Virus record (IMG/VR): IMGVR_UViG_3300034200_001961 | Strand: one strand, 5' to 3' | Source of the DNA: an uncultured virus (IMG/VR IMGVR_UViG_3300034200_001961) | Lineage: Duplodnaviria > Heunggongvirae > Uroviricota > Caudoviricetes | Length of the DNA stretch: 31,849 nucleotides | Shown: in pieces, positions 3,195-27,257 of the stretch | Layout of the letters: each line of letters begins with the position of its first letter | Numbering within the stretch: position 1 is the first letter of the stretch | Notes under the pieces: generated by a model | Database searches by the model: none | Seen by the model: only the letters and a program-made list of their open reading frames with translations | What the model was told of the DNA's origin: nothing | Program-made: the position numbers and the translations under genes

Positions 3195-4013
3195 GTGTCG
3201 CTTCGCCTTGAGATCAATGGCCGGCGGCACTATCAGGTGGCTCCTGGGGTCTACGTCCCTTCAGTGACCACTGTCCTCGGGGCGACTGCTTCGCCGGCCA
3301 GCAAGAAGGCCCTGAACAACTGGCTGGAGAAGAACCCGGGCGGGCGGGAAGCCGCGGCCGATCGCGGCACGGCCGTCCATAAAGCCTGCGAGGACTACAT
3401 TCGCGGGCGCGTTGTTTCAGTCCCAGCTGAGATCCGCTGCTACTGGGACGGACTGGCGGCTCATCTCGACTCCTATGACAGCTTCATTTGGAGTGAGGTC
3501 CCCTTACTCCCCCAGCACAGGCACCTGATCGACGCCAAGAGCGGTATCGCCATGGTGCACTCCCTCCAGTACCGCTACGCCGGCGTTCCTGACCTGATTG
3601 CCTTGCGTAACGGGGCGCACTTCCTGGTCGACTTCAAGACTTCCAGCAACCCCTACTGCCGGTTCTTTCCCAAGCAGGACGACGACGAGATCCTCGCTGC
3701 CGGGGGGTCGTTCGGGGGGTGGATGAAGTACCTCAAATGCGCCACCCAGCTGGCGGCCTACAAGATTGCGATCAAAGAGACCCTGGGGGTCACCATAAAC
3801 CGAGTCGAGATCCTCACTTCCACGCCCCTGATCACGCAACGTTTCCAGATCTGTGGGCCCGAGCTCAAGAAGTTCGAGGTCAAATGGCTCCAGAAAGTTC
3901 GGGCCTACTACGACCTAGTCGCCCAGGAGACTGCAGCCGCAAGCGCCGGGCTCACCCTCGAGGAGTTGCTGGCCCTGCCGGCCGCCAAGCGGAAGGAGCT
4001 GGTGGCGGCCTAG
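3195..4013 (+). CDS. PD-(D/E)XK exonuclease (phage exonuclease, MGME1-like)
   Basis: Motifs PSVTTVL, RGTAVH, SE, YAGVPD, VDFKTS and QLAAY. Confidence 0.9.
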   Translation: MSLRLEINGRRHYQVAPGVYVPSVTTVLGATASPASKKALNNWLEKNPGGREAAADRGTAVHKACEDYIRGRVVSVPAEIRCYWDGLAAHLDSYDSFIWSEVPLLPQHRHLIDAKSGIAMVHSLQYRYAGVPDLIALRNGAHFLVDFKTSSNPYCRFFPKQDDDEILAAGGSFGGWMKYLKCATQLAAYKIAIKETLGVTINRVEILTSTPLITQRFQICGPELKKFEVKWLQKVRAYYDLVAQETAAASAGLTLEELLALPAAKRKELVAA

Positions 4014-4345
4014 AGGCGCTGGTCGGCCCGCGCCGGCCACAGGTTCCCGGGCACCTCACCCGGCGGCGTCAGCGGCAGAACGTCACCGGGATCTGGAGGC
4101 GGTGACCCCGCCGGCGGCATCCGGTACACGTCTTCGAGGATCTCCTTGCGCCGGCGCGCGTCGATCGCCGGGTTTGGTGTCACGTACCCCAGGGCGAACC
4201 CGCCAGCCCCGGTGAACAGACTGACCCCTTGCATATAGCAGCCGCCATCGAATTTAGTTCCGCTGACCCGGCAGTCCAAGATGTAGACCAGCCCGAGCGC
4301 AGTCAGCAATCCCGTCAGCGTGAAAACCGGTGCTGGAGCTTTCAT
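4010..4345 (-). CDS. Small membrane protein, holin-like
   Basis: Two hydrophobic segments and a charged/Pro-rich C-tail. ATGA-coupled to the upstream PAS gene. The holin role is inferred. Confidence 0.55.
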   Translation of the reverse strand: MKAPAPVFTLTGLLTALGLVYILDCRVSGTKFDGGCYMQGVSLFTGAGGFALGYVTPNPAIDARRRKEILEDVYRMPPAGSPPPDPGDVLPLTPPGEVPGNLWPARADQRL

Positions 4346-4980
4346 GATTCCTGCTCCTCAAATGTGTCGATACGCCCCATCCATCCGACCACGGCTCCGT
4401 CTACCCGCACCGCGTCGGCCATCACCCGCACCGGAATCAGCTGGCCACTGCGCACGTTCCGCAGTCTCAAGCGGTAACCAGGGAAATCTCGCTTGTCCTG
4501 CACGGCCGACCCCCAGTCCTCGGTGTAATGAGCCAGGTCCTCTGGAGCGATGCAGTTCTTCCAGCCCAGCCCGGCTGCATCTTCAGCTGTCATGCCCACC
4601 AGTTCCAGCAGGGGCCGACTGGATTGGACGTGGACGCCTTCAGCGTTGGTCGTGTAAGACAAGACCCCAGCCCCGTCACGCATGGCGTGAGCCTGCGCCT
4701 CGACGATCGCCAAGTGCCAGCGGATCCGGGCCAAGCATTGTTCGTTTCGTTTGGTCAGATCAAACAACGAGCCGCCGCCATTGGGATACAGCTGTCCCAA
4801 AACCAGGTCCAGCTTTCGCTGCGTCTCCCGGCCCGGCAGCCGCTTGCAGGCCCAGGAAGCCGACCTCCGCAGCAAGGGCCAGGTCCAGCTGTTCGTTTTC
4901 AAGAAGCCGTACCCCACCGCCCCCGCCCCGCCAGCCCAAGCAAGTCGCTCCAACAGCAGGGCCAACAGGACTGGATCCAT
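4342..4980 (-). CDS. Membrane-anchored PAS-domain protein
   Basis: Hydrophobic N-terminus, a LYPNGGGSLFD motif and a helical linker. A PAS_3-like domain follows (TNAEG...ELVGMTAEDAAGLGWKNCIAPEDL...W...YRLR...VVGWMG). Confidence 0.8.
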   Translation of the reverse strand: MDPVLLALLLERLAWAGGAGAVGYGFLKTNSWTWPLLRRSASWACKRLPGRETQRKLDLVLGQLYPNGGGSLFDLTKRNEQCLARIRWHLAIVEAQAHAMRDGAGVLSYTTNAEGVHVQSSRPLLELVGMTAEDAAGLGWKNCIAPEDLAHYTEDWGSAVQDKRDFPGYRLRLRNVRSGQLIPVRVMADAVRVDGAVVGWMGRIDTFEEQES

Positions 4981-5083
4981 TGCAACTGCCTACTCCTAAG
5001 CCGGAGACCTAGATGGGTTCTGCGCCCATTCTGCCACTACAGAGCAGTCTTGCGCTTCTGAGCGCCCAAGCGAATCGGGGCGG

Positions 5084-5154
5084 GTCGCAGTCGTCGCAAG
5101 GATTGACGCACTCTTGACGCAGTATTGACAAGAACAGGCCCGCCCATGCACACT
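5084..5154 (+). promoter_or_regulatory. Primase promoter with tandem TTGAC repeats
   Basis: TTGAC at 5103, 5114 and 5125 (11-bp period). TTGACA (5125)-N18-CACACT (5149). Confidence 0.55.
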
Positions 5155-5180
5155 CGAAACTGCATTCCTGCACTGCCGCC

Positions 5181-7550
5181 TTGACGCCGATCCTCTGGTC
5201 CGCCCACCCCGACATCCATGACAAACCTCTTTGGGAACCTCGTTTTGGTTATGGCTGGCAGCGGCGAGGCCCCGACCTCCAGGGCTTGATCGACCACATC
5301 ACTACTGGAGGCGCTTTTATTGCCGCCGCGATGACATCCCACCACCGCACGGCAGCGGCCTTTGAGTCCACATCCCTGGTGGCCATCGATGTCGACTATG
5401 GGCTGACCGCCGAAGAGTTCGCTCAACACCCCCTGGCTGCCTACGCCTGCTTCGCCTACACCACTCCGTCGCATGAACCGGAGGCCGGCAAGCACCGCTT
5501 CCGCGTCTTGTTTCGCTTGCCCGAAACCATTCACAGCGGAGAACTCTGCAAAGCGATTGTCACGATTCTCACCAATGCCCTGGGCGGCGACCGCAGCTGC
5601 ACCGACCCGACCCATCTCTTCTATGGCAACACCAAGGCTATCCGCCTGATCGAGGCACCAGACGCCGCTCTTGACGGGCAAATCATCCTTGACGCCGAGG
5701 CTTTTCTCGAACAGCAGCGCATTGCCTGCCGCGATGCCGCTTCCGAGGTCGACGAGCTTTCGATCCTGCGTGCCATCCATGTTCTCGAGCAGGTGCTCAA
5801 TCCCACTTGCGACGGCGAACGCGACAAGTTCGTCCGAATCTCAGCAGCCGCCCGCGCCGGCGGTGACGCTGTCTTTCCGGCCTGGTCTGATTGGGCCAGC
5901 AGAGGGCACCACGGATCCCAGAAGAACAAGCGCCAGTCCTCCGAGCGCTGGTTCCGCGGGCTCAAGGGAAGTTCCCTGGGCACCCTGTTTTTCCTGGCTT
6001 CCGAGCAAGACCCCAGCTGGCGCGACAGCCTGCCCGATGAACTGCGCTCTAGCGAAGGCCATGGCTTCAAGGGTCACTCCGACACCTATGCCGGCTACGA
6101 CGCGGAGGACTTCATGGGCGATCCAGCTATTTCGATCCCGAGCACTCCGCAGCCCTCGATGTTCGACCCCGAGTCCCCCTGGGCGAAGGTTGTAACGCTT
6201 TCTGCTTCTGCCGGCTACGAAGAGGAGGCCTTTCAGGGAGACCCACCCGAAAAACCCACAGGCGGCGACGGGGCCGGTGGGCAAGGAAAGCCCGACAAAC
6301 AGGGCCCCGGTCGTCCCAAGAAGGTCAAAAACGACCCGATCGAAACGATCATGGTCCGGCTGCGCAACCTCTACCCCAGCTTGCGCCGCAACGTCGTCAC
6401 CGACCAGGACGAGTTCGGTCCCAAGGGGAAGCCTCAGCAGCTGCCGGACTCCAGCACCACTTACGTCAGGCTCAGCCGCGGCACCGGCGACGTCTTCCCC
6501 AAAACACTTGTCAACGACTTGATCCAGGTGGTTGCCTACGAGAATCGCTACAACCCAGTCAAGGGCTACCTGGAGGGCTGTCTCTCTGGCCACACTCCTT
6601 GCCCCTACTTCGACCGCCTGGCCACTCAGCTCTTGGGCATTGAGGTTGAGGACAGCGATTCACTGGCCATCAACGGCCGCGCGGTGGCCGACGAAATCCT
6701 GCGGCGCTTCCTGATCGGGGCCGTGGCCCGTGCCATGCAGCCGGGGTGTGACATGCCCTGGATACCGATCTTCGTTGGCGCCCAGAATCTCGGCAAGTCT
6801 GCCTTCCTGCGCTACCTGGTTCCGCCCCAGCACTGCGGTCCCTCCTGGTCAGCCACGGTGCAGCAAGGCATCGGACTGCTCAAAGAGAAGCCGCACATGC
6901 TTCATGCCGGCTGGATCGTTGTTCTTGACGAGGTCGAGCGCTACTTCCAGCGCAGGTACGTTGAGGAGCTCAAGAACTTGATTTCGACCCCAGTCGACTA
7001 TTCCGCCAAGAAGTACCAGAACGAGGTTCACTACCCCCGGTCTTTTGTGATGGCTGGCGCCACCAACACCCGCGACTTTCTGGTGGACCCCACTGGAAAC
7101 CGGCGCTTCTTGCCGGTCATCATCCACGGCCGGGTGCCCAGCCCCGAAGACCCACGAGTGAAGATCATTGACCTCGACCGGCTGCAGCAGGACCGCGACT
7201 CGATCTGGGCAGCCGCCTACACGGCCTACCTGGCTGGCGAGCCCTGGACCTTCTCGTCTCACGAGCTGGCCCAGGTGAATGGCTACATCGATGGATTCAC
7301 TGCCGACAGCGGCATTGCCCCCTTGGTTGCCCGGGTCTTAAGCACTCACACCACCGGGCTGATCAGGGGCCGCCGCTACGTCCTGCTCAATGAGGTGATG
7401 CAGCAAATGGGCATCGAGGTGACCAAGTTCGCCCACATGCGGACTGCGGTCAGCGACGAGCTGAAGCGGCTGGGTTGGGAATCCAAGCGGGTCTTGATCA
7501 TGGCCAAGTTGACCCGGGTCTGGCTGGAGCCGGCAAGGGGGCAGTCATGA
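5181..7550 (+). CDS. Primase-helicase: AEP primase-polymerase + PriCT-2 + VirE/VapE-type P-loop helicase
   Basis: AEP motifs IDVD, YTTPSH and DRSCTDPTHLFY. PriCT-2-like segment AWSDWASRG. Walker A GAQNLGKS, Walker B VVLDE, and TN..FLVDPTGNRRF. Confidence 0.9.
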   Translation: MTPILWSAHPDIHDKPLWEPRFGYGWQRRGPDLQGLIDHITTGGAFIAAAMTSHHRTAAAFESTSLVAIDVDYGLTAEEFAQHPLAAYACFAYTTPSHEPEAGKHRFRVLFRLPETIHSGELCKAIVTILTNALGGDRSCTDPTHLFYGNTKAIRLIEAPDAALDGQIILDAEAFLEQQRIACRDAASEVDELSILRAIHVLEQVLNPTCDGERDKFVRISAAARAGGDAVFPAWSDWASRGHHGSQKNKRQSSERWFRGLKGSSLGTLFFLASEQDPSWRDSLPDELRSSEGHGFKGHSDTYAGYDAEDFMGDPAISIPSTPQPSMFDPESPWAKVVTLSASAGYEEEAFQGDPPEKPTGGDGAGGQGKPDKQGPGRPKKVKNDPIETIMVRLRNLYPSLRRNVVTDQDEFGPKGKPQQLPDSSTTYVRLSRGTGDVFPKTLVNDLIQVVAYENRYNPVKGYLEGCLSGHTPCPYFDRLATQLLGIEVEDSDSLAINGRAVADEILRRFLIGAVARAMQPGCDMPWIPIFVGAQNLGKSAFLRYLVPPQHCGPSWSATVQQGIGLLKEKPHMLHAGWIVVLDEVERYFQRRYVEELKNLISTPVDYSAKKYQNEVHYPRSFVMAGATNTRDFLVDPTGNRRFLPVIIHGRVPSPEDPRVKIIDLDRLQQDRDSIWAAAYTAYLAGEPWTFSSHELAQVNGYIDGFTADSGIAPLVARVLSTHTTGLIRGRRYVLLNEVMQQMGIEVTKFAHMRTAVSDELKRLGWESKRVLIMAKLTRVWLEPARGQS

Positions 7551-7825
7551 GCAAGAGACGCAACACAGACCGTGACCGTCGCCACTCGAAGAGCGAGCCG
7601 GCCCGAGAGGAGGGCGTCTCTCCGGCTGCTTTCCGCCGAGCCCGAGCGTCTTGGCTGAGTCTCACTGAGACAGCTGATTTCCAGCTCCTGCTGAGACTGG
7701 CTGCGCTGGAAGGCTTTCTTCCATGTCAGTCGCATCAGTCTCAGGCGAGACTCACGAAATCAGCGAGAATTGACGACCCCCTGTCGCTTAAGCCGGCTGC
7801 GGGGGAACCAGTCTCAAGGGGTTGA
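7547..7825 (+). CDS. Possible small basic protein (92 aa) overlapping the repeat region
   Basis: ATGA overlap with the primase stop. It may be a spurious frame across the GTCTCA repeats. Confidence 0.3.
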   Translation: MSKRRNTDRDRRHSKSEPAREEGVSPAAFRRARASWLSLTETADFQLLLRLAALEGFLPCQSHQSQARLTKSARIDDPLSLKPAAGEPVSRG

Positions 7826-8000
7826 CGCAAGAGCCTCACGAGCGCTTCCTTTCTGTCAGAAATAGAAACTCCACTGCGGACGCTTCATCCCTGTTTGTGC
7901 CCCCTTCCGAACACGCCCTGAATACCCGCTAGCCTCTGTGCGCTCCAAATCCGCATCCCATTGGCGGAAAGGGGGAAAACATTTCTGACAAGAAGGAAGC
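7659..8000. repeat. Iteron-like GTCTCA/TGAGAC repeats plus 20-bp inverted repeat; candidate replication origin or structured RNA
   Basis: Inverted pairs at 7659-7671 and 7737-7752. Half-sites at 7692 and 7811. Inverted repeat 7844-7863 / 7981-8000 matches at 18 of 20 positions. Confidence 0.6.
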
Positions 8001-8246: not shown

Positions 8247-8576
8247 ATGCTCCTTGAGTTTCACGGCCACCAGTCGGTCCACCCCCTCGAAGGCCGCGAC
8301 CGGCCGATCGTTGATCGCCTGCTCGCCTGCACAGTGGACACCGCCACCGACACAGACGTCGTCGACCTGGCCCGCCTGGTCGCCCGCTATGCCGACTTCC
8401 AGGGCGCCTTCCCCCTGAAGAAGGACCTGATCCAGGCCGCCAAGACCTTGGGCTTCGCCAGTCGCGACGCCCTTAATGCCGCTGCCAGGCGCATTTGGCA
8501 GTCCGGCTACTCGCCAATGAGCGATCAGGCTGACACAGGTGTAGGATCTGGCGCAGACGTGCAGGCGGCCGAGTGA
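8247..8576 (+). CDS. DUF3288-family protein (cyanobacterial)
   Basis: HPLEGRDRPIVDRLL...DLARLVARYADFQGA...DL resembles the DUF3288 pattern. Confidence 0.75.
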   Translation: MLLEFHGHQSVHPLEGRDRPIVDRLLACTVDTATDTDVVDLARLVARYADFQGAFPLKKDLIQAAKTLGFASRDALNAAARRIWQSGYSPMSDQADTGVGSGADVQAAE

Positions 8577-15795: not shown

Positions 15796-15849
15796 GGGCG
15801 CGGAACGCCCGCTGTGGCTCTAGGTTACCCAAGCTGCACTCGCCACTTT

Positions 15850-18800
15850 ATGCACCCTTCCAGTGACCCTTTCCCCGCCGACGCACGATCTGCTTACCCT
15901 CTGTTCTATCGCTCCTACTCCCGCCGCCTGGATGACGGCAGCCGTGAATCCTGGGAGCAAGTGGTCGAGCGCAATCTCAGCGCCCTGGTTGAGCTGGGTC
16001 GACTGAACCCTGAGCAAGAAGCCCTGCTGCGCCGGCACCAGCTGGACCTCACATCCCTGCCTTCGGGGCGCTGGCTTTGGGTCGGTGGCACCCCCTGGGC
16101 CACCGACCAGCGCAACTTCTATGGCGCATACAACTGCAGTTCGGTCCACGTCGATCAGCTCAGCGCCTTCGGGCTGCTGATGGATCTGGCGATGCAGGGG
16201 ACCGGCACCGGTGCGGTGCTTACTCGGGCCAATGTCGATCGGCTGCCGAAGGTTGTCAACCGGCTGGAGATCGACTACCGCGGCTCCCTGGGTTCAGCTG
16301 CCCCGGATGAGCGCAGTCCTCGCACGGCGGCAAGGCTTGTTGACTGCGAGCATCTTCTGATCAAGGTCGGCGATTCTCGCGATGGCTGGGTCACTTCCTA
16401 CCAGAAGCTCATCCAGCTTGCCTGCGGCGTCGGGTTTTTCAGTACCTCTGGCGCTATCAAGATCACGATCGACCTGAGCTGGGTGCGCCCACCTGGCGAG
16501 CGGCTCAAGGGCTTCGGTGGGGTGGCCAACCCCTCGGCCCTCCCTGAGATGTATGCCCGGGTAGCAGGGATCTTGAACCGCGCCATTGGCCGCCAGCTCA
16601 CGCCCCTGGAGTGCTGTCTGATTATCGACGAGGCCGCCCGCTGCGTCGTGGCCGGCAACATCCGCCGCAGCGCCGGCATGCGTCAGTTCGACGAAGACGA
16701 CCTTGAGGCCGCCGGCGCCAAGCGCAATCTCTGGGGCCAGGACGAGCAGGGCTACTGGGCGATCGATCCGGAGCGCGACGCATTGCGGATGGCCAATCAC
16801 ACCCGGCTCTTTCACCGCAAGCCCACCCGCGGCGAAGTGCTCGAAGCGGTGCGCAGCCAGCACGCTTGCGGCGAGGGGGCTATCCAGTTCATTCCTGAAG
16901 CCCTGGCCCGGGCCAATGCCGACATCCTCGGGCCCCAGTGGTTGAAGGAGAGCTTTCTTGCAGTGATTGAAGAAGGCGGGCTGGAGGGCGGCGCCAAAGG
17001 TCTTGCAACAATCCTGTTCGGCACGGGCGATCTCGATGATCTCGATCCCGAGCAGCGCCGGGAGTTGAACCACCGCATCAGCAGGTTTGGGCTTAATCCG
17101 TGCGGTGAGATAATCGGCTCCGACTTCCTGTGCAACCTCGCTGAAGTCCACCTCAACCGGCTCGACCCCAACGACTCCAGAGCGGTCGAGGAGGCTTTCC
17201 GCGCCGCTGCGCTCACGGTGTCTGTGCTACTTCACCACCACTTCCGCGACGAGCGGATGCAGGAAGCCCGGCTGCGAGACCCGATTGTCGGGGTGAGCTT
17301 CACTGGGTTGTTCGATTACTTCGTGCGCGCGCTGGGTGTCGACTGGCTGCGCTGGTGGGCCGAAGGCCGCCCGCCCCACGCCCAGGGGGCAGTGTTCTCC
17401 GCCTACGAGGTCAAGACCTTGCGCCGCTTCCGCGCCGTCGTCGAAGAGGAAGTAGCGACCTACTGCGAGGCCCACGGCCTGAAGGTCCCTAACCGCTGCA
17501 CCACCGTGCAGCCCGCTGGCTGCCTGGGGCTCGACGCGGTGCGCGTCACCAGCCGGGGGCTACTGCTGTTCAACGAAGCGAAGCTGCTTTGGGCCTGGCA
17601 TCAGGATGACCCCCTGCTCATTCGCGGCACACTGCCTGTGGTCGACACCGTGCGCAACGAACCCAGGCCCGCCCTACGTCTCACTCTGGTCAGCGGCCGG
17701 CAGATCGTCTGCACCCCGGACCACCGTTTCTGGGTAGAGAGCATGGGCTGGGTTCAAGCTCAAGCTCTTCGGATTGGCCACGAGCTTCAAGCTTCCCCAG
17801 GAGAACACTCCGGCCAGCCTGTCGCCACCCAGCAGCTGGAGGAGCCTGAGATGACCCCGGCCAAAGCCCCAAGCTCTCTGACACCAGGACTGGCCTACGT
17901 GGCCGGGGTCTCGCTGATCAAGAACCCCGCCCGGGTCACCTGGCCGGCCCTGCGCAACATGGCTCCTGACTGCTTGCACTTCTCCTTCCCTCTCACGGAG
18001 GGGGCGGCCGCAGACCGCCTGAACGAGTGGTTCGAGGACCTGTTTGAGATACCGCTCAAGCGGCGACTCTCGGGCCACACCATTCATCTGTTCAGCCGCG
18101 AGGCCCCCTTGCGCCGCTGGCTGGAGACCAACGGCCTCCTGATCGCCGATGCCCCTGAGACAGACCGGCTGCCTTTGTCTTTGCGCCAGTCCACTGCCAG
18201 TGCGATTCGTTCGCTCTTTGCGGGACTGATTGATGCGACGGCCAGCAAGATACGAAATCAGCCGCCTGTCATCAAGATCCAAAGCGAGCCCCTTGCCCGC
18301 CATCTCCAGCAGGTAGGGGAGGCCGTGGGCCTGGTCTTCCGCCTGCAGCGCCACCAGAACGGCAAAAAACCCTACTGGAAGCTGACCCTTTCGCGGTTCT
18401 GGAGCACTGCTCCAGCTTTGGACTATTTGGCCACTTACAGCCTCCACTGCCAGGGACGGGATATGCGCAAGACGCATAACTGCTTCGGGCACCATTACTG
18501 GCAGGTGGCCGCTATCGAGCAGATCGAAAATACCGCCACCGCAGACATCTGCTTGGGCGCTGATGACGACGATGCCTGGTACTGGGCAGGTGCCATCAAG
18601 AGCCACAACAGCAAGTCCTTGTTGACCAATGCCTCCCCGGGCTGGCATCCGCCCAAGGCCCCTTACTACATTCGTCGGATCACCTTCGCCAAGGACGACC
18701 CGATTGCTTTGGCCTGCCTGGCCTATGGCTACCCTGTCGTCCCATCTCAGTCCGATAAGGACGAGAGCGGCAGGCTGCTCAGCGACCCGCACGACCCGCG

Positions 18801-19281
18801 TTGCACCGAGTGGCTGGTGGAGATTCCCACTGCCACGCCCTGGGCAGAGCTGGAGGGGGCGGCCGAGATCGACACCGGCAAATTCCCCGCCCTGGCTCAG
18901 TTTGACTTCTACATGAACGTGCAGAAGCACTACTCGGGGCACAACACCAGTGCCACCCTGGAGCTCACCGAGGCCGAGATTGAGCCACTCGCCACGGCCA
19001 TCCACACGGCCATCGACACGGACCAGGGATACATATCTGCCGCCCTGCTGGCCCGCTTCGAGGACAAGGAGACCTTCCCGCGGATGCCGTTTGAGCCGAT
19101 CAGCAAGGAGCGCTACGAGGCGCTCTGCGCTGAAGTTGAGCAGCGCCGCACCAACGACTGCTTTTTTGAGGCTCTGGCTCACTTCGACAGCAAAGCAGTC
19201 GGCGGAGCCCCCCAAGTGGAGGGGCCCACCGGCTGCGATAGCGATAAGTGCCTGATGCCGGAAGCCGGGCCCGGAGTCTGA
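15850..19281 (+). CDS. nrdJ: Class II (adenosylcobalamin-dependent) ribonucleoside-triphosphate reductase with intein
   Basis: PSGRWLWVGG, YNC, VVAGNIRRSA, NPCGEI...CNL, TTVQPAG / SKSLL, and C-terminal GCDSDKC. Confidence 0.95.
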   Translation: MHPSSDPFPADARSAYPLFYRSYSRRLDDGSRESWEQVVERNLSALVELGRLNPEQEALLRRHQLDLTSLPSGRWLWVGGTPWATDQRNFYGAYNCSSVHVDQLSAFGLLMDLAMQGTGTGAVLTRANVDRLPKVVNRLEIDYRGSLGSAAPDERSPRTAARLVDCEHLLIKVGDSRDGWVTSYQKLIQLACGVGFFSTSGAIKITIDLSWVRPPGERLKGFGGVANPSALPEMYARVAGILNRAIGRQLTPLECCLIIDEAARCVVAGNIRRSAGMRQFDEDDLEAAGAKRNLWGQDEQGYWAIDPERDALRMANHTRLFHRKPTRGEVLEAVRSQHACGEGAIQFIPEALARANADILGPQWLKESFLAVIEEGGLEGGAKGLATILFGTGDLDDLDPEQRRELNHRISRFGLNPCGEIIGSDFLCNLAEVHLNRLDPNDSRAVEEAFRAAALTVSVLLHHHFRDERMQEARLRDPIVGVSFTGLFDYFVRALGVDWLRWWAEGRPPHAQGAVFSAYEVKTLRRFRAVVEEEVATYCEAHGLKVPNRCTTVQPAGCLGLDAVRVTSRGLLLFNEAKLLWAWHQDDPLLIRGTLPVVDTVRNEPRPALRLTLVSGRQIVCTPDHRFWVESMGWVQAQALRIGHELQASPGEHSGQPVATQQLEEPEMTPAKAPSSLTPGLAYVAGVSLIKNPARVTWPALRNMAPDCLHFSFPLTEGAAADRLNEWFEDLFEIPLKRRLSGHTIHLFSREAPLRRWLETNGLLIADAPETDRLPLSLRQSTASAIRSLFAGLIDATASKIRNQPPVIKIQSEPLARHLQQVGEAVGLVFRLQRHQNGKKPYWKLTLSRFWSTAPALDYLATYSLHCQGRDMRKTHNCFGHHYWQVAAIEQIENTATADICLGADDDDAWYWAGAIKSHNSKSLLTNASPGWHPPKAPYYIRRITFAKDDPIALACLAYGYPVVPSQSDKDESGRLLSDPHDPRCTEWLVEIPTATPWAELEGAAEIDTGKFPALAQFDFYMNVQKHYSGHNTSATLELTEAEIEPLATAIHTAIDTDQGYISAALLARFEDKETFPRMPFEPISKERYEALCAEVEQRRTNDCFFEALAHFDSKAVGGAPQVEGPTGCDSDKCLMPEAGPGV
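17521..18609 (+). mobile_element. Intein (363 aa) with degenerate LAGLIDADG domain
   Basis: Starts with Cys (CLGLD) after QPAG. Block B is CTPDHRF. It ends IKSHN followed by Ser. LAGLIDADG-like segments are AYVAGVSLIKN and LFAGLIDATA. Confidence 0.93.
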
Positions 19282-19626
19282 TCAGAGCCCCCGCTCGTCG
19301 AGGTCCTCGTCCTCCCTCACCTGGTGGGCGAGGACGATTCCCTCTTTGTCGACCGCGCAAGCCGTCACCGTAATAGCCATCGGCTCTGCAGCAGTGGAAC
19401 GGAGAAACCCCGCACAAGACCACAGCACCGCTTCGACTGCGTCGGGGCCGAGCAGTTCTCGGTTGCCGATGCGTGACGCCAGTTTTTCCAGCTGCGCGGC
19501 CAGCAAGCCGGCTTCACTGCCGCTGGGAACCTGGCGGTACGGGAAGAGTGCCAACGCGGCGTTTCGCCCGGCCATCTCGAAGGCCATCCCAACACCGCTG
19601 GGGAAATTGATATGCGCCTGACTCAT
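19282..19626 (-). CDS. Hypothetical protein
   Basis: ATGA-coupled to the upstream gene. Its stop abuts the nrdJ stop. Confidence 0.7.
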   Translation of the reverse strand: MSQAHINFPSGVGMAFEMAGRNAALALFPYRQVPSGSEAGLLAAQLEKLASRIGNRELLGPDAVEAVLWSCAGFLRSTAAEPMAITVTACAVDKEGIVLAHQVREDEDLDERGL

Positions 19627-20111
19627 CCCAACCCCAGCTGCTGATTGATTTGATTCATCTGCTGGCGCATGGATCCGATCACCGCGACCAGCTGATCTGT
19701 ATTGACCCCGCTCAAGGCGACCGGCGGCGCCAATCCAAACGACCCCGCCGTTCCGGGTGCTGGATTAAGCGGCCCGCGAACCATTCCGCTGCCGCTTAAT
19801 TTCGTCACGGTCTCCCCCAAGGCCAAGTCCAGCTCCTGGCGGGTGACCACCTCTTGCAGCACTGGTTCCAGTTGTGTGCGAGTGACCGCAGAAGTGTTCA
19901 GCTGCTGCAGCGCCTGCAGGAAGGGCGTCAGTTCGTCGCGGGTGGGGCGCTGGCCAATTCCAGAACGCAGGTCTTGGATTACCAGGCCAGTGTCCTGCAC
20001 GGAGCTGATATGGTCCCGGCGCAAGCGAGAGGTCGAAAGCCGGCCGCCGAGGAAGCCGCCAGCCCCGCCAACGACAAGTGCCACCACGCCAGAGAGAAGG
20101 TAAGTGAGCAT
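19623..20111 (-). CDS. N-terminally membrane-anchored coiled-coil protein
   Basis: TM segment MLTYLLSGVVALVVGGAGGFLGG and repeated TRxEL helices. It lies downstream of the lysin. Confidence 0.75.
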   Translation of the reverse strand: MLTYLLSGVVALVVGGAGGFLGGRLSTSRLRRDHISSVQDTGLVIQDLRSGIGQRPTRDELTPFLQALQQLNTSAVTRTQLEPVLQEVVTRQELDLALGETVTKLSGSGMVRGPLNPAPGTAGSFGLAPPVALSGVNTDQLVAVIGSMRQQMNQINQQLGLG

Positions 20112-20169
20112 AGAGAGGAATCAGAGGCTGCCAGATGCAGCAGGCAGCGTGAACTCTACCGCTCTTGAC

Positions 20170-21510
20170 TCACTGGGACCAACGCTTGGCCAGCCGCCGC
20201 CGGAGCAGGTCGAAATTCTGATAGGGCGTCATGCTGCCACTGCCGGCCGGCGCTGGCGCCAGGAAATCGACCGAAGCAATTGTGCCGTCCTGACTGAGGA
20301 CCCGGCCGGTGCCGCCCTGCCTGCCGATGACCGCTCCCTCGGGCACCTCTTGGCCCTTGGTCACGTTGATCGAATCAAGGTGGCCGTAGAGCACGTCGAC
20401 CTTCTGGCCGGTGGCCGGATCGATCGATTCCTTGACCACGTAATTGCCGTAGCCCTTGCCTGTCGCCCCCCGGCCCGAGCCCTGGTAGCCGATGTCTTTG
20501 ATCCGCCCGGGCAACAGGGACCTGAACTGCTTGTCCTCAAAGTAGAGATCGATCCCCGGCTGCCCTTGGTCGAACGAGGTCGAGATAGAGCGCTTGAATG
20601 GCACCGGTTTGGCGCCACTGGCAGCCGGGCCCGAGCCGCCGCCGCCGGGCTGTCTTGGCGTGCCCTGGGCAGCCACCTCCATGGGGGCAGCAATCGCCTG
20701 CGGCGGGACACTGGCCGGGGGTTCACCGCTAACCATTTGAGCCAAGGTCCCAGCCATTCGCTGCCGGCCTTGGGCGCCCCTGGCCGCCAGGTATTGCAGC
20801 CCGGCATTGCCAGCCCCGGCCACTCCGCCGGCGGCGATCGCGCTGCCGATCGTGGCAAGGGCCAGCTTCTCTGGTGTTTGCCCCTGTCCGGGCATTGGTA
20901 TTGCGGTTGATCGGTCTAACCCTCCGTAAGGATTCGGCACATCCAGGGACAGTTCCTTGAGGGGGTCTCCCCCGCCTGCTGCGGGCCTTTGAAAGCTGGC
21001 CCCCGAGACTGGGGGCGCCCCCTTCGCGGCGGCGGTGAACTTTGCCAGCAGGTCGGCAGCCTTTTTGACTGGCTGACCATAGGCACTTTTGCCTGCCAGC
21101 GTCGGCAGCGAAGCCCACTCCGGCGCCAGCTTGGCCAGCGTGCCAGCGTCTACCTTGCCGGCCATCACGTCGTCAAGGTTCACCCCGCGGCGCTCGATCA
21201 GCCGCATGGCCGCAGCATCTTGATTGGCCGGACTGAAGTCCTTGATCCCTAACTGCCCGGCGACTTCATCCCAAGTAGTCGAAAGGAACTGGTAGCGGCC
21301 CGAGGCATCAGAAGCCCACTGGCTGTTTACGCCACCCTTGCCGCGGCCCAGCACCTGGCGGGGGTGCTTCCACCCCCGGCTGGTATCAAAGCGGCCGCCG
21401 CCGAACTGGACGTTGTAGTCGGCGCCTTCCGCTGAAGCGATCGTGTCCAGCAGGGCACGACCGAAGGGGTTCTGCGCCGCGGCCTGGTAGTCCTGCAGTG
21501 TCCTGGCCAC
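20170..21510 (-). CDS. Lambda-R-like lysozyme (GH104/GH24) fused to a degenerate M23 domain
   Basis: RALLDTIASAEG, ASGRYQFLSTTW, FSPANQD and LAPEWASLP. The C-terminal part has GID, GYGNYV, LYGHL and IGRQGGTG. Confidence 0.88.
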   Translation of the reverse strand: MARTLQDYQAAAQNPFGRALLDTIASAEGADYNVQFGGGRFDTSRGWKHPRQVLGRGKGGVNSQWASDASGRYQFLSTTWDEVAGQLGIKDFSPANQDAAAMRLIERRGVNLDDVMAGKVDAGTLAKLAPEWASLPTLAGKSAYGQPVKKAADLLAKFTAAAKGAPPVSGASFQRPAAGGGDPLKELSLDVPNPYGGLDRSTAIPMPGQGQTPEKLALATIGSAIAAGGVAGAGNAGLQYLAARGAQGRQRMAGTLAQMVSGEPPASVPPQAIAAPMEVAAQGTPRQPGGGGSGPAASGAKPVPFKRSISTSFDQGQPGIDLYFEDKQFRSLLPGRIKDIGYQGSGRGATGKGYGNYVVKESIDPATGQKVDVLYGHLDSINVTKGQEVPEGAVIGRQGGTGRVLSQDGTIASVDFLAPAPAGSGSMTPYQNFDLLRRRLAKRWSQ

Positions 21511-26681: not shown

Positions 26682-27257
26682 TTGAGCTACTCGAACGATC
26701 GAATTACGCAGCCGTGGCTGGCCACCGCCGAAGCTTTACACCACGTCGAGCGGATTCACCAAGAGGAAGAGGCCGCGCTCAGCGGGCAGCCTGCTGCGCC
26801 CGCCGAAGACGACCTCAAGCCCACCAACCCCAAAACAGCGATCGGAGACAGGAAAGTCCCGCTCGCGCTGTGCTCCCCGATCGCAGCAGCTCACTGGGCT
26901 CTCGCCCAGTTCTCTGGCATGTGCAAGTATCAAGCCTGGAACTGGCGAATTGCTGGCGTGCGGAGCAGCACTTACGTTTCGGCGATCAAACGCCACCTTG
27001 ACGCTTACATCTCAGGCGAAGAGCTTGACCCCGTTGACGGCTCTCACCACCTCGGCAACATCATGGCCTGCTGCGCGATCTTGCTCGACGCGCAAGCGGC
27101 CGGCAAGCTCAACGACGACCGCCCGCCAAGCGTCGACTGCCGCGGCGCGTACGAGTTTGTCGAGAAGCAGATGGTCGCGCTTCGCGAGAAGTATAAGCAC
27201 ATCGAGCAGAAACCATACACGATCGAAGACACGATCAGGCCCGATGCAACAACCTGA
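26682..27257 (+). CDS. DUF5664 / dATP-dGTP diphosphohydrolase domain protein
   Basis: NPKTAIGDRKVPL, GMCKYQAWNWR, YVSAIKRHL, GEELDPVDGSHHLGNIMACCAILLD and DDRP. Confidence 0.85.
   Translation: MSYSNDRITQPWLATAEALHHVERIHQEEEAALSGQPAAPAEDDLKPTNPKTAIGDRKVPLALCSPIAAAHWALAQFSGMCKYQAWNWRIAGVRSSTYVSAIKRHLDAYISGEELDPVDGSHHLGNIMACCAILLDAQAAGKLNDDRPPSVDCRGAYEFVEKQMVALREKYKHIEQKPYTIEDTIRPDATT

Follow-up and report, generated by a model that had tools for sequence, protein, structure and literature searches.

A probably membrane-anchored PAS protein and its translationally coupled small partner in an uncultured phage: a tentative lysis-timing pair

The gene pair and its two proteins

The window analyzed here, the whole 31,849-nucleotide stretch of the uncultured Caudoviricetes record IMGVR_UViG_3300034200_001961, has a G+C content of 62% and carries replication and nucleotide-metabolism genes together with some structural genes. 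Two minus-strand genes, here called PAS212 (gene 1) and small111 (gene 2), are placed between an exonuclease gene and a primase/helicase gene, both of which lie on the opposite (+) strand. An initial annotation had described them as a two-gene operon with an ATGA overlap, inserted between exonuclease and primase genes, and had interpreted them as a candidate sensor-gated lysis module. The open reading frames (ORFs) at 4342-4980 and 4010-4345 and the family matches of both flanking genes confirmed this layout, and the interpretation is partly supported by the analyses below. The features of the locus are as follows, with aa for amino acids, E for expect value, TM for transmembrane, KD for Kyte-Doolittle hydropathy, AF2 for AlphaFold2 and pLDDT for predicted local distance difference test.

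4342-4980, - strand: gene 1, PAS212, membrane-anchored PNGGxS-motif/coiled-coil/PAS protein of 212 aa (ORF, PF08447, homologues, AF2)
4894-4974, - strand: N-terminal hydrophobic helix of PAS212, residues 3-29, probable membrane anchor (KD, AF2 helix)
4765-4785, - strand: PNGGGSL motif of PAS212, residues 66-72, where family conservation is highest, in a low-pLDDT loop between helices
4678-4767, - strand: long linker helix of PAS212, residues 72-101, coiled-coil-like and running into the PAS domain (AF2)
4363-4677, - strand: PAS domain, residues 102-206 (Pfam 121-202, AF2 strands, Foldseek)
4342-4345, - strand: ATGA stop/start overlap (translational coupling), with the gene 2 ATG at 4345-4343 and the gene 1 TGA at 4344-4342
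4010-4345, - strand: gene 2, small111, small membrane protein of 111 aa (ORF), with a probable 2-TM hairpin, a charged helix and a Pro-rich tail
4274-4330, - strand: first TM helix (TM1) of small111, residues ~6-24 (KD 1.91 over residues 5-23; AF2 helix 10-27)
4178-4228, - strand: putative second TM helix (TM2) of small111, residues ~40-56, Gly-rich GVSLFTGAGGFALGYVT (weak hydropathy; AF2 helix 34-55 of low confidence)
3195-4013, + strand: exonuclease gene (phrog_298, E 1.9e-29)
4981-5180, no strand: divergent intergenic region from gene 1 to the primase gene, with three TTGAC(G/A) repeats, read directly
5181-7550, + strand: primase/VapE-type helicase gene (PF05272, E 1.2e-42)

The stop codon of small111 overlaps that of the exonuclease gene by 4 nucleotides, tail to tail. 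Because the pair and its ATGA overlap are retained in relatives at 67-97% identity (67% in loci L007 and L013, 74% in L010; the overlap itself is seen in L007 and L010), the pair is not a chance feature. The position beside the exonuclease and primase genes is also conserved within the phage clade that carries small111 and PAS212. The nearest relative among the records searched, G001, is a complete viral genome of 94,461 bp with direct terminal repeats, and its PAS212 is 95% identical; the genome of the lake phage studied here is likewise put at ~94 kb.

The best 19-residue KD window at the N-terminus of PAS212 (residues 4-22) scored 1.58 and is interrupted by the conserved E11-R12. The approximately 30 residues following the hydrophobic helix contain many Lys and Arg residues, and according to the positive-inside rule the coiled coil and the PAS domain are therefore likely to be cytoplasmic, with PAS212 predicted to be a single-pass protein in the N-out/C-in orientation. 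In the AF2 model, obtained with 16 homologues (mean pLDDT 77, about 90 for the PAS part), helices span residues 3-29, 33-46, 51-64 and 72-101, and the low-confidence loop at 65-71 holds PNGGGS. The hydrophobic N-terminus, the PNGGGSL motif and the helical linker reported in the initial annotation were all recovered in these analyses.

The PAS domain proposed for gene 1 was identified by PF08447 (PAS_3), which matched residues 121-202 with E 5.4e-6 and 27.0 bits against a gathering cut-off of 25.6; the same family is assigned in 10 of 15 close homologues (precomputed assignments). The AF2 model contains the five-stranded PAS sheet (strands at 107-111, 117-120, 166-174, 181-193 and 196-206, pLDDT ~90) with its flanking helices. 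Foldseek searches of the PDB returned PAS structures as all top matches, namely haem PAS, FixL, LOV/aureochrome, ARNT/HIF, NifL and Aer, with a probability of 1.00 and target-normalised TM-scores of up to 0.81. PAS212 ends at residue 212, six residues past the last PAS strand, and Pfam detected neither an output domain (kinase, GGDEF/EAL or helix-turn-helix, HTH) after the PAS domain nor any other match, in agreement with what had been claimed. The LOV motif GxNCRFLQ is absent, as first noted; the sequence reads GWKNCIAPED, and its Cys143 is not conserved, being G, A or L in relatives. Judged by this motif, the PAS domain is not a LOV blue-light sensor. For residues 1-100, the Protein Atlas gave no feature match, and the structural neighbours, all below the naming bar, included clusters of viral PAS proteins and one viral cluster of 116 aa.

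The second protein, small111, consists of TM1, a loop with two invariant Cys residues, a Gly-rich segment, a charged helix containing RRRKEILED and a variable Pro-rich tail, in that order. Conservation covers residues 1-79 and includes C25, C36, GxGG and RRR, with G46, G48, G49 and G53 invariant. The AF2 model (pLDDT 54.7) has helices at 10-27, 34-55 and 59-75. The initial annotation had called this a two-TM protein, which stands for TM1, a clear helix with KD 1.91, and is reduced to probable for TM2, where KD stays below 1.0 and the model is of low confidence. Taken as a probable two-TM protein, small111 is predicted from its charges to form an N-in/C-in hairpin. Its length of 111 aa, the KD of 1.91 in TM1 and the charged region RRRKEILED after the second helix are holin-like traits.

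In the divergent intergenic region, positions 5101-5130 hold three closely spaced TTGAC(G/A) repeats, GATTGACGCA, CTCTTGACGC and AGTATTGACA on the + strand, which are conserved in G001 and may serve the divergent promoters as regulator sites or as a stack of -35 boxes. A promoter and terminator scan gave no consensus promoter in 4981-5180, and no promoter motif common to 40 upstream regions of G001 emerged from 8-mer enrichment. In the relative L007 (67% identity), the divergent primase junction is replaced by a gene for a 222-aa protein (7258-7926, + strand), which immediately precedes the PAS gene and shares its strand; this protein has an HTH-looking stretch and no Pfam match at E ≤ 0.001.

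The TM-PNGGxS family and its genomic settings

PAS212 has the N-terminal TM helix, the PNGGxS-x-x-D junction and the following helix by which a wider family is recognized. A profile search of 1.84 billion representatives yielded 12,083 proteins at E ≤ 0.001. Among the best 150 of these matches, 71 are short (106-261 aa) and 79 are longer; 78 of the longer ones are large multi-PAS proteins that align to the PAS part only, and the other, of 363 aa, aligns over nearly the whole profile. All 22 short members taken from the best 150 and aligned have the hydrophobic N-terminus, PNGGxS, the helix and the PAS domain. Family conservation and the profile comparisons below are based on a diverse 27-member alignment, in which G69, S71 and D74 of the motif, together with G115 and W140, are invariant and N67 is present in at least 90% of members. 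Because of these positions, the junction motif PNGGxS-x-x-D, and not the PAS domain, is the signature of the family. The strongest conservation in the family falls on the invariant Asn-Gly-Gly (residues 67-69 of PAS212) and the S-x-x-D helix cap behind it; of all dipeptides, Asn-Gly is the one most prone to deamidation.

Scanning IMG/VR for PNGGxSLRD gave 488 stretches, 302 of which encode relatives on viral contigs. The best 80 of these 302 comprise long forms of 172-260 aa and short forms of 76 aa without a PAS domain; PAS-less short forms overall measure 76-184 aa. Since such forms exist, the N-terminal module is likely to represent the core function. Protein Atlas neighbours with the TM-PNGGxS layout fall into clusters labelled 100% viral, and source annotations of family members read just "PAS domain S-box-containing protein" or "hypothetical protein". 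Over the motif region, 17 of the 27 relatives match phrog_9869 (98 positions, unknown function). By sequence, this is considered a large, undescribed and phage-restricted family with the order TM helix, PG, helix, PNGGxS-x-x-D and coiled coil, with or without a PAS domain. As far as the literature was searched, neither the motif strings nor a PAS-holin fusion was found, and the family appears uncharacterised.

When PAS212, small111 and P0091 were used as tblastn queries against cultured phages, no match was obtained. BLAST with the PAS-less forms found homologues in six distinct cultured actinophages:

Streptomyces phage mu1/6, gp52: follows endolysin gp50 and holin gp51, with a 4-nucleotide overlap with the holin gene
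Streptomyces phage TurkishDelight, gp37: follows endolysin gp35 and holin gp36
Arthrobacter phage Sonali, gp22: overlaps the start of lysin A
Thermobifida phage P1312, gene 040 (P1312_040): overlaps the start of an amidase gene
Arthrobacter phage LiSara, gp70: itself annotated as holin in RefSeq
Glutamicibacter phage BIM BV-113, 00590: region unannotated

The homologue lies directly beside an annotated endolysin or holin gene in four of the six phages, and a fifth, LiSara gp70, is annotated as the holin. The statement in the initial annotation that PNGGSS-type motifs occur in small membrane proteins near phage lysis genes holds for cultured actinophages. The motif is present in mu1/6 gp52, P1312_040, TurkishDelight gp37, LiSara gp70 and Sonali gp22, and in the actinophage homologues it takes the form HEL(H/Y)PNxGxS(L/I)(R/K)D, together with a TM helix and an (R)PG repeat. 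In profile-profile comparison by HHalign, the 27-member profile aligned with mu1/6 gp52 over 68 columns that take in both TM helix and motif (97.9%, E 6e-13) and with P1312_040 over 31 columns (96%, E 4e-9). The N-terminal module of the PAS212 family is thus homologous to actinophage lysis-cassette proteins.

A further arrangement was seen in 23 near-identical viral loci (L071-L093), where a 76-aa PAS-less form comes after a 56-aa 2-TM protein and an unannotated protein of 161-177 aa and has tail-fibre genes on its upstream side and RecE/RusA genes on its downstream side. This setting is a classical lysis-cassette position; no lysis families were detected in the cluster.

The neighbourhoods of family genes were surveyed on viral contigs of IMG/VR. 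The 80 loci were dereplicated to 44 (42 long and 2 short forms), and 242 ORFs lying no more than three ORFs from the family gene were annotated against PHROGs at E ≤ 1e-4, 139 of them also against Pfam. The ORF calls were crude (longest-first, or guided by third-codon-position G+C for G001), which probably makes some of the neighbours spurious. The categories, which overlap, were distributed as follows.

Lysis, 7 of 44 loci: spanin at -1 in L016 and L054, endolysin at -1 in L051, matches at -2 in L030, at -3 in L025 and at +2 (weak) in L050, and holin at +3 in L024
Tail or tail fibre, 9 of 44 loci
Head, packaging or connector, about 13 of 44 loci
DNA/RNA metabolism, about 11 of 44 loci, including an exonuclease in L029 and a DnaE polymerase in L066
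Glycosyltransferase, 4 of 44 loci
Integrase, 1 of 44 loci

Among the replication neighbours are also an exonuclease and a polymerase-exonuclease at L056. As a control, 150 random ORFs were drawn from 267 eligible ones at an ORF distance of 5-8 in the same loci, and these contained a single lysis match, in 1 of 42 loci. Fisher's one-sided test for enrichment gave p = 0.034 by loci and p = 0.12 by ORFs (7/242 versus 1/150).

Function of the pair and alternative explanations

We tentatively read PAS212 and small111 as a lysis-timing module with a cytoplasmic sensor, a plausible reading that we would stop short of calling probable. The two proteins would associate in the membrane as a two-component holin-like module and would together set the moment of membrane permeabilisation for lysis. 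In this module the 1-TM subunit would have acquired a cytoplasmic PAS domain, which would bind a cytoplasmic ligand or cofactor. Ligand binding would alter the dimer or the register of the PAS212 coiled coil, and this change would shift the association of the TM helix with small111, tying lysis time to host state. A more general proposal, that a widespread, phage-only class of output-less membrane PAS proteins gates holin triggering directly, with the signal passing via the PNGGxS junction and the TM helix and no transcription step, is regarded as doubtful. Complex prediction for PAS212 with residues 1-82 of small111 gave a score of 0.00 in a run without controls, which speaks neither for nor against binding.

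Candidate lysis genes of this phage were located in the window and in G001. At 19282-21510 (- strand) of the window, a cluster starts with a 446-aa protein that has a transglycosylase-like N-terminus and an M23 peptidase C-terminus (20170-21510; phrog_90 endolysin, E 1.6e-25), continues with a 162-aa protein that combines an N-terminal TM helix with a long helical stretch, and ends with a 114-aa protein. From its sequence, this cluster is a candidate for a separate lysis cassette, or for a tail lysin with spanin- or holin-like partners. A second endolysin-like gene is found in G001 (48339-49517, 392 aa, phrog_894, E 3.3e-18); it belongs to the region 47074-49725 (- strand), downstream of the portal and terminase genes, and is flanked by small ORFs without a TM helix. 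A hydropathy screen of all G001 ORFs, with crude ORF calls and cut-offs, returned few credible small membrane proteins: small111, a 151-aa ORF and, next to the M23 hydrolase, a TM protein of 159 aa. Because there are so few, small111 is one of very few holin candidates in G001, and on its hydropathy it stays on the short list.

Several findings weigh against assigning the pair to lysis. The pair is not near either endolysin-like gene of this phage: PAS212 and small111 sit in the replication module, the M23/transglycosylase gene at 20170-21510 is 15 kb away, and the second endolysin-like gene is about 47 kb away on the G001 map. For small111, no endolysin linkage was found, the nearest endolysin-like gene being the one 15 kb off. 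The protein gave no Pfam match at E up to 10 and no PHROG match at E up to 0.001, and so belongs to no holin family found there; its second segment (~40-56) falls below KD 1.0 in every 19-residue window, and its homologues form five clusters that all come from one phage clade. The TM helix of PAS212 is marginal, with E11-R12 inside the window of KD 1.58, and PAS212 itself matches no PHROG family at E ≤ 0.01, hence not phrog_9869. The lysis role of the actinophage homologues is taken from gene position and depositors' annotation. In the survey, no lysis gene lay at a distance of up to three ORFs in 37 of the 44 loci, and the neighbourhoods differed widely in content. The enrichment is small and of borderline significance, and a small same-strand TM protein lies immediately downstream in only 5 of 44 loci. 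The link of homologues to lysis genes, whose absence the initial annotation named as refuting, was thus seen for the PAS-less actinophage proteins and for 7 of the 44 viral loci.

Superinfection exclusion, or another membrane barrier, is unlikely, although it survives best among the alternatives. The pair would then be an early-expressed inner-membrane module, with small111 as a 2-TM protein resembling T4 Imm and PAS212 as the regulator, that keeps out the DNA of later phages or changes a host membrane process. Its place amid early/middle replication genes and its divergent orientation to the primase gene would suit such a module, as would the scattered accessory positions of the family (after tail-fibre genes, beside terminase, by an integrase), and the restriction of small111 to one clade fits a fast-evolving accessory gene. 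However, no similarity to a known exclusion protein was found in PHROG or Pfam (PADLOC was not searched), and exclusion leaves the endolysin/holin adjacency of the PAS-less actinophage homologues unaccounted for. No tyrosine integrase (PF00589) was found in the complete relative G001 or in G003 (serine integrases were not searched for), so prophage-type immunity is unlikely; the idea that the pair is a prophage-expressed moron was rejected on the same result.

Interference with host signalling appears improbable. Here the membrane-tethered PAS domain would act as a decoy, pairing with PAS domains of host sensor kinases or cyclases and rewiring host signalling during infection, and small111 would be incidental. 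PAS domains commonly dimerise, dimeric PAS structures are among the Foldseek matches, and the combination of one PAS domain and a coiled-coil linker is similar to the sensory portion of a histidine kinase; moreover, 79 of the 150 best profile matches are longer proteins, 78 of them multi-PAS proteins sharing the PAS part only. A decoy function is nevertheless difficult to reconcile with a family whose most conserved part is the N-terminal motif and not the PAS domain and whose PAS-less short forms (76-184 aa) point to the N-terminal module as the core function. PAS212 and small111 also stay translationally coupled in relatives.

A membrane tether for phage DNA replication, analogous to phi29 p16.7 with its TM helix, coiled coil and C-terminal domain, is very improbable, because PAS is not a DNA-binding fold and most family members lie outside replication modules, even though the exonuclease/primase neighbourhood is conserved in the clade and replication genes stand beside long forms in L029 (exonuclease), L066 (DnaE-type polymerase) and L056 (exonuclease and polymerase-exonuclease). 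That the pair serves some function apart from lysis timing, exclusion, decoy or tether is rather unlikely as well.

The lysis-timing reading bears on a key phage fitness trait, for which the known controls are holin accumulation, antiholins and lysis inhibition of the T4/N4 type. A sensor domain joined directly to a membrane protein of the lysis cassette would add a new, post-translational way of feeding signals into lysis control. Under the more general and doubtful proposal above, the metabolic state of the host would set lysis time via a cytoplasmic ligand, redox or light signal, and in this lake phage, possibly a cyanophage, burst timing would be linked to the energy or light status of the host. 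Whatever its function, the family is a large uncharacterised phage family, with 302 relative-encoding stretches in IMG/VR.

Other parts of the window concern the host and the phage genome. For the stretch 3900-5250, at least half of the sampled words were present in 20 lake/freshwater metagenome runs from 20 studies, two of which are possibly the source; no RNA run was among those listed. A DUF3288 protein is encoded at 8247-8576 (+ strand; PF11691, E 3.8e-15), a family that we take to be typical of cyanobacteria; together with the lake-water origin and the G+C content of 62%, it hints at a freshwater picocyanobacterial host. Further genes encode dCMP deaminase, ThyX, a DnaE-type polymerase and a class II ribonucleotide reductase (15814-19281, + strand, 1155 aa) with a weak intein-splicing match; the orthologue in G001 has 1483 aa, and this difference in length suggests variable intein content. 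A dATP/dGTP diphosphohydrolase N-terminal domain (PF18909, E 8e-23) lies at 26682-27257 (+ strand), and the second-listed cultured-phage match of the primase at 5181-7550 is the primase-polymerase of cyanophage S-2L (29.6% identity). A 2-aminoadenine (Z) genome, considered from PF18909 and the S-2L-like primase, was rejected because no PurZ/PurA-family match was found in the complete relative G001.

Comparison with known systems

The closest counterparts by sequence are the PAS-less actinophage proteins, which share with the PAS212 family the TM helix, (R)PG, a helix, the motif (L/Y/H)PN(G/S/A/H)G(G/S/L)S(L/I)(R/K/F)D and a following helix. They differ in having no PAS domain, in their length (91-184 aa), in the Actinomycetota hosts of their phages and in being located mostly beside endolysin/holin genes. 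Neither these proteins nor phrog_9869 have been characterised, as far as the literature was searched.

In T4 lysis inhibition, the antiholins RI and RIII are said to bind the holin T so that lysis timing shifts with a signal, which RI reportedly senses from the periplasm. PAS212 shares with this system the concept of a sensor binding a holin, but there is no sequence or fold relation and T4 uses no PAS domain. As far as the literature was searched, phage PAS proteins in print are soluble transcription factors, for example VqmA of vibriophage VP882, a soluble PAS and HTH sensor that reportedly governs the lysis decision via transcription. Both VqmA and PAS212 are phage-encoded PAS proteins, whereas PAS212 is membrane-anchored and has no output domain.

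Compared with class II holins/pinholins such as S21 68, as presented in PMC13056207, small111 is likewise small, with two hydrophobic helices in a predicted N-in/C-in arrangement, a Gly-rich helix and a charged cytoplasmic C-terminal segment. It departs from that type in lacking a family match, in its weak TM2, long Pro-rich tail and two invariant loop Cys residues, and in not being endolysin-adjacent.

The nearest parallel in layout is the LysF1a/LysF1b pair of F1-cluster mycobacteriophages. According to the same paper, efficient lysis requires both LysF1a, which has two TM domains (N-in/C-in), and LysF1b, which has one (N-out/C-in) and a long helical domain in the cytoplasm; in the phages Girr and NormanBulbieJr the two genes share a -4 bp ATGA overlap (PMC13056207). 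The likeness is one of layout. BLAST with mu1/6 gp52 and P1312_040 gave no mycobacteriophage at E ≤ 0.01. PAS212/small111 has the opposite gene order, with the 1-TM gene first, the pair stands outside a lysis cassette, and PAS212 adds a PAS domain and the PNGGxS motif to what is described for LysF1b. The helix numbers predicted for PAS212 and small111 (one and, probably, two) and the ATGA overlap agree with LysF1b and LysF1a, and the topology of PAS212 and small111 is predicted from their charges.

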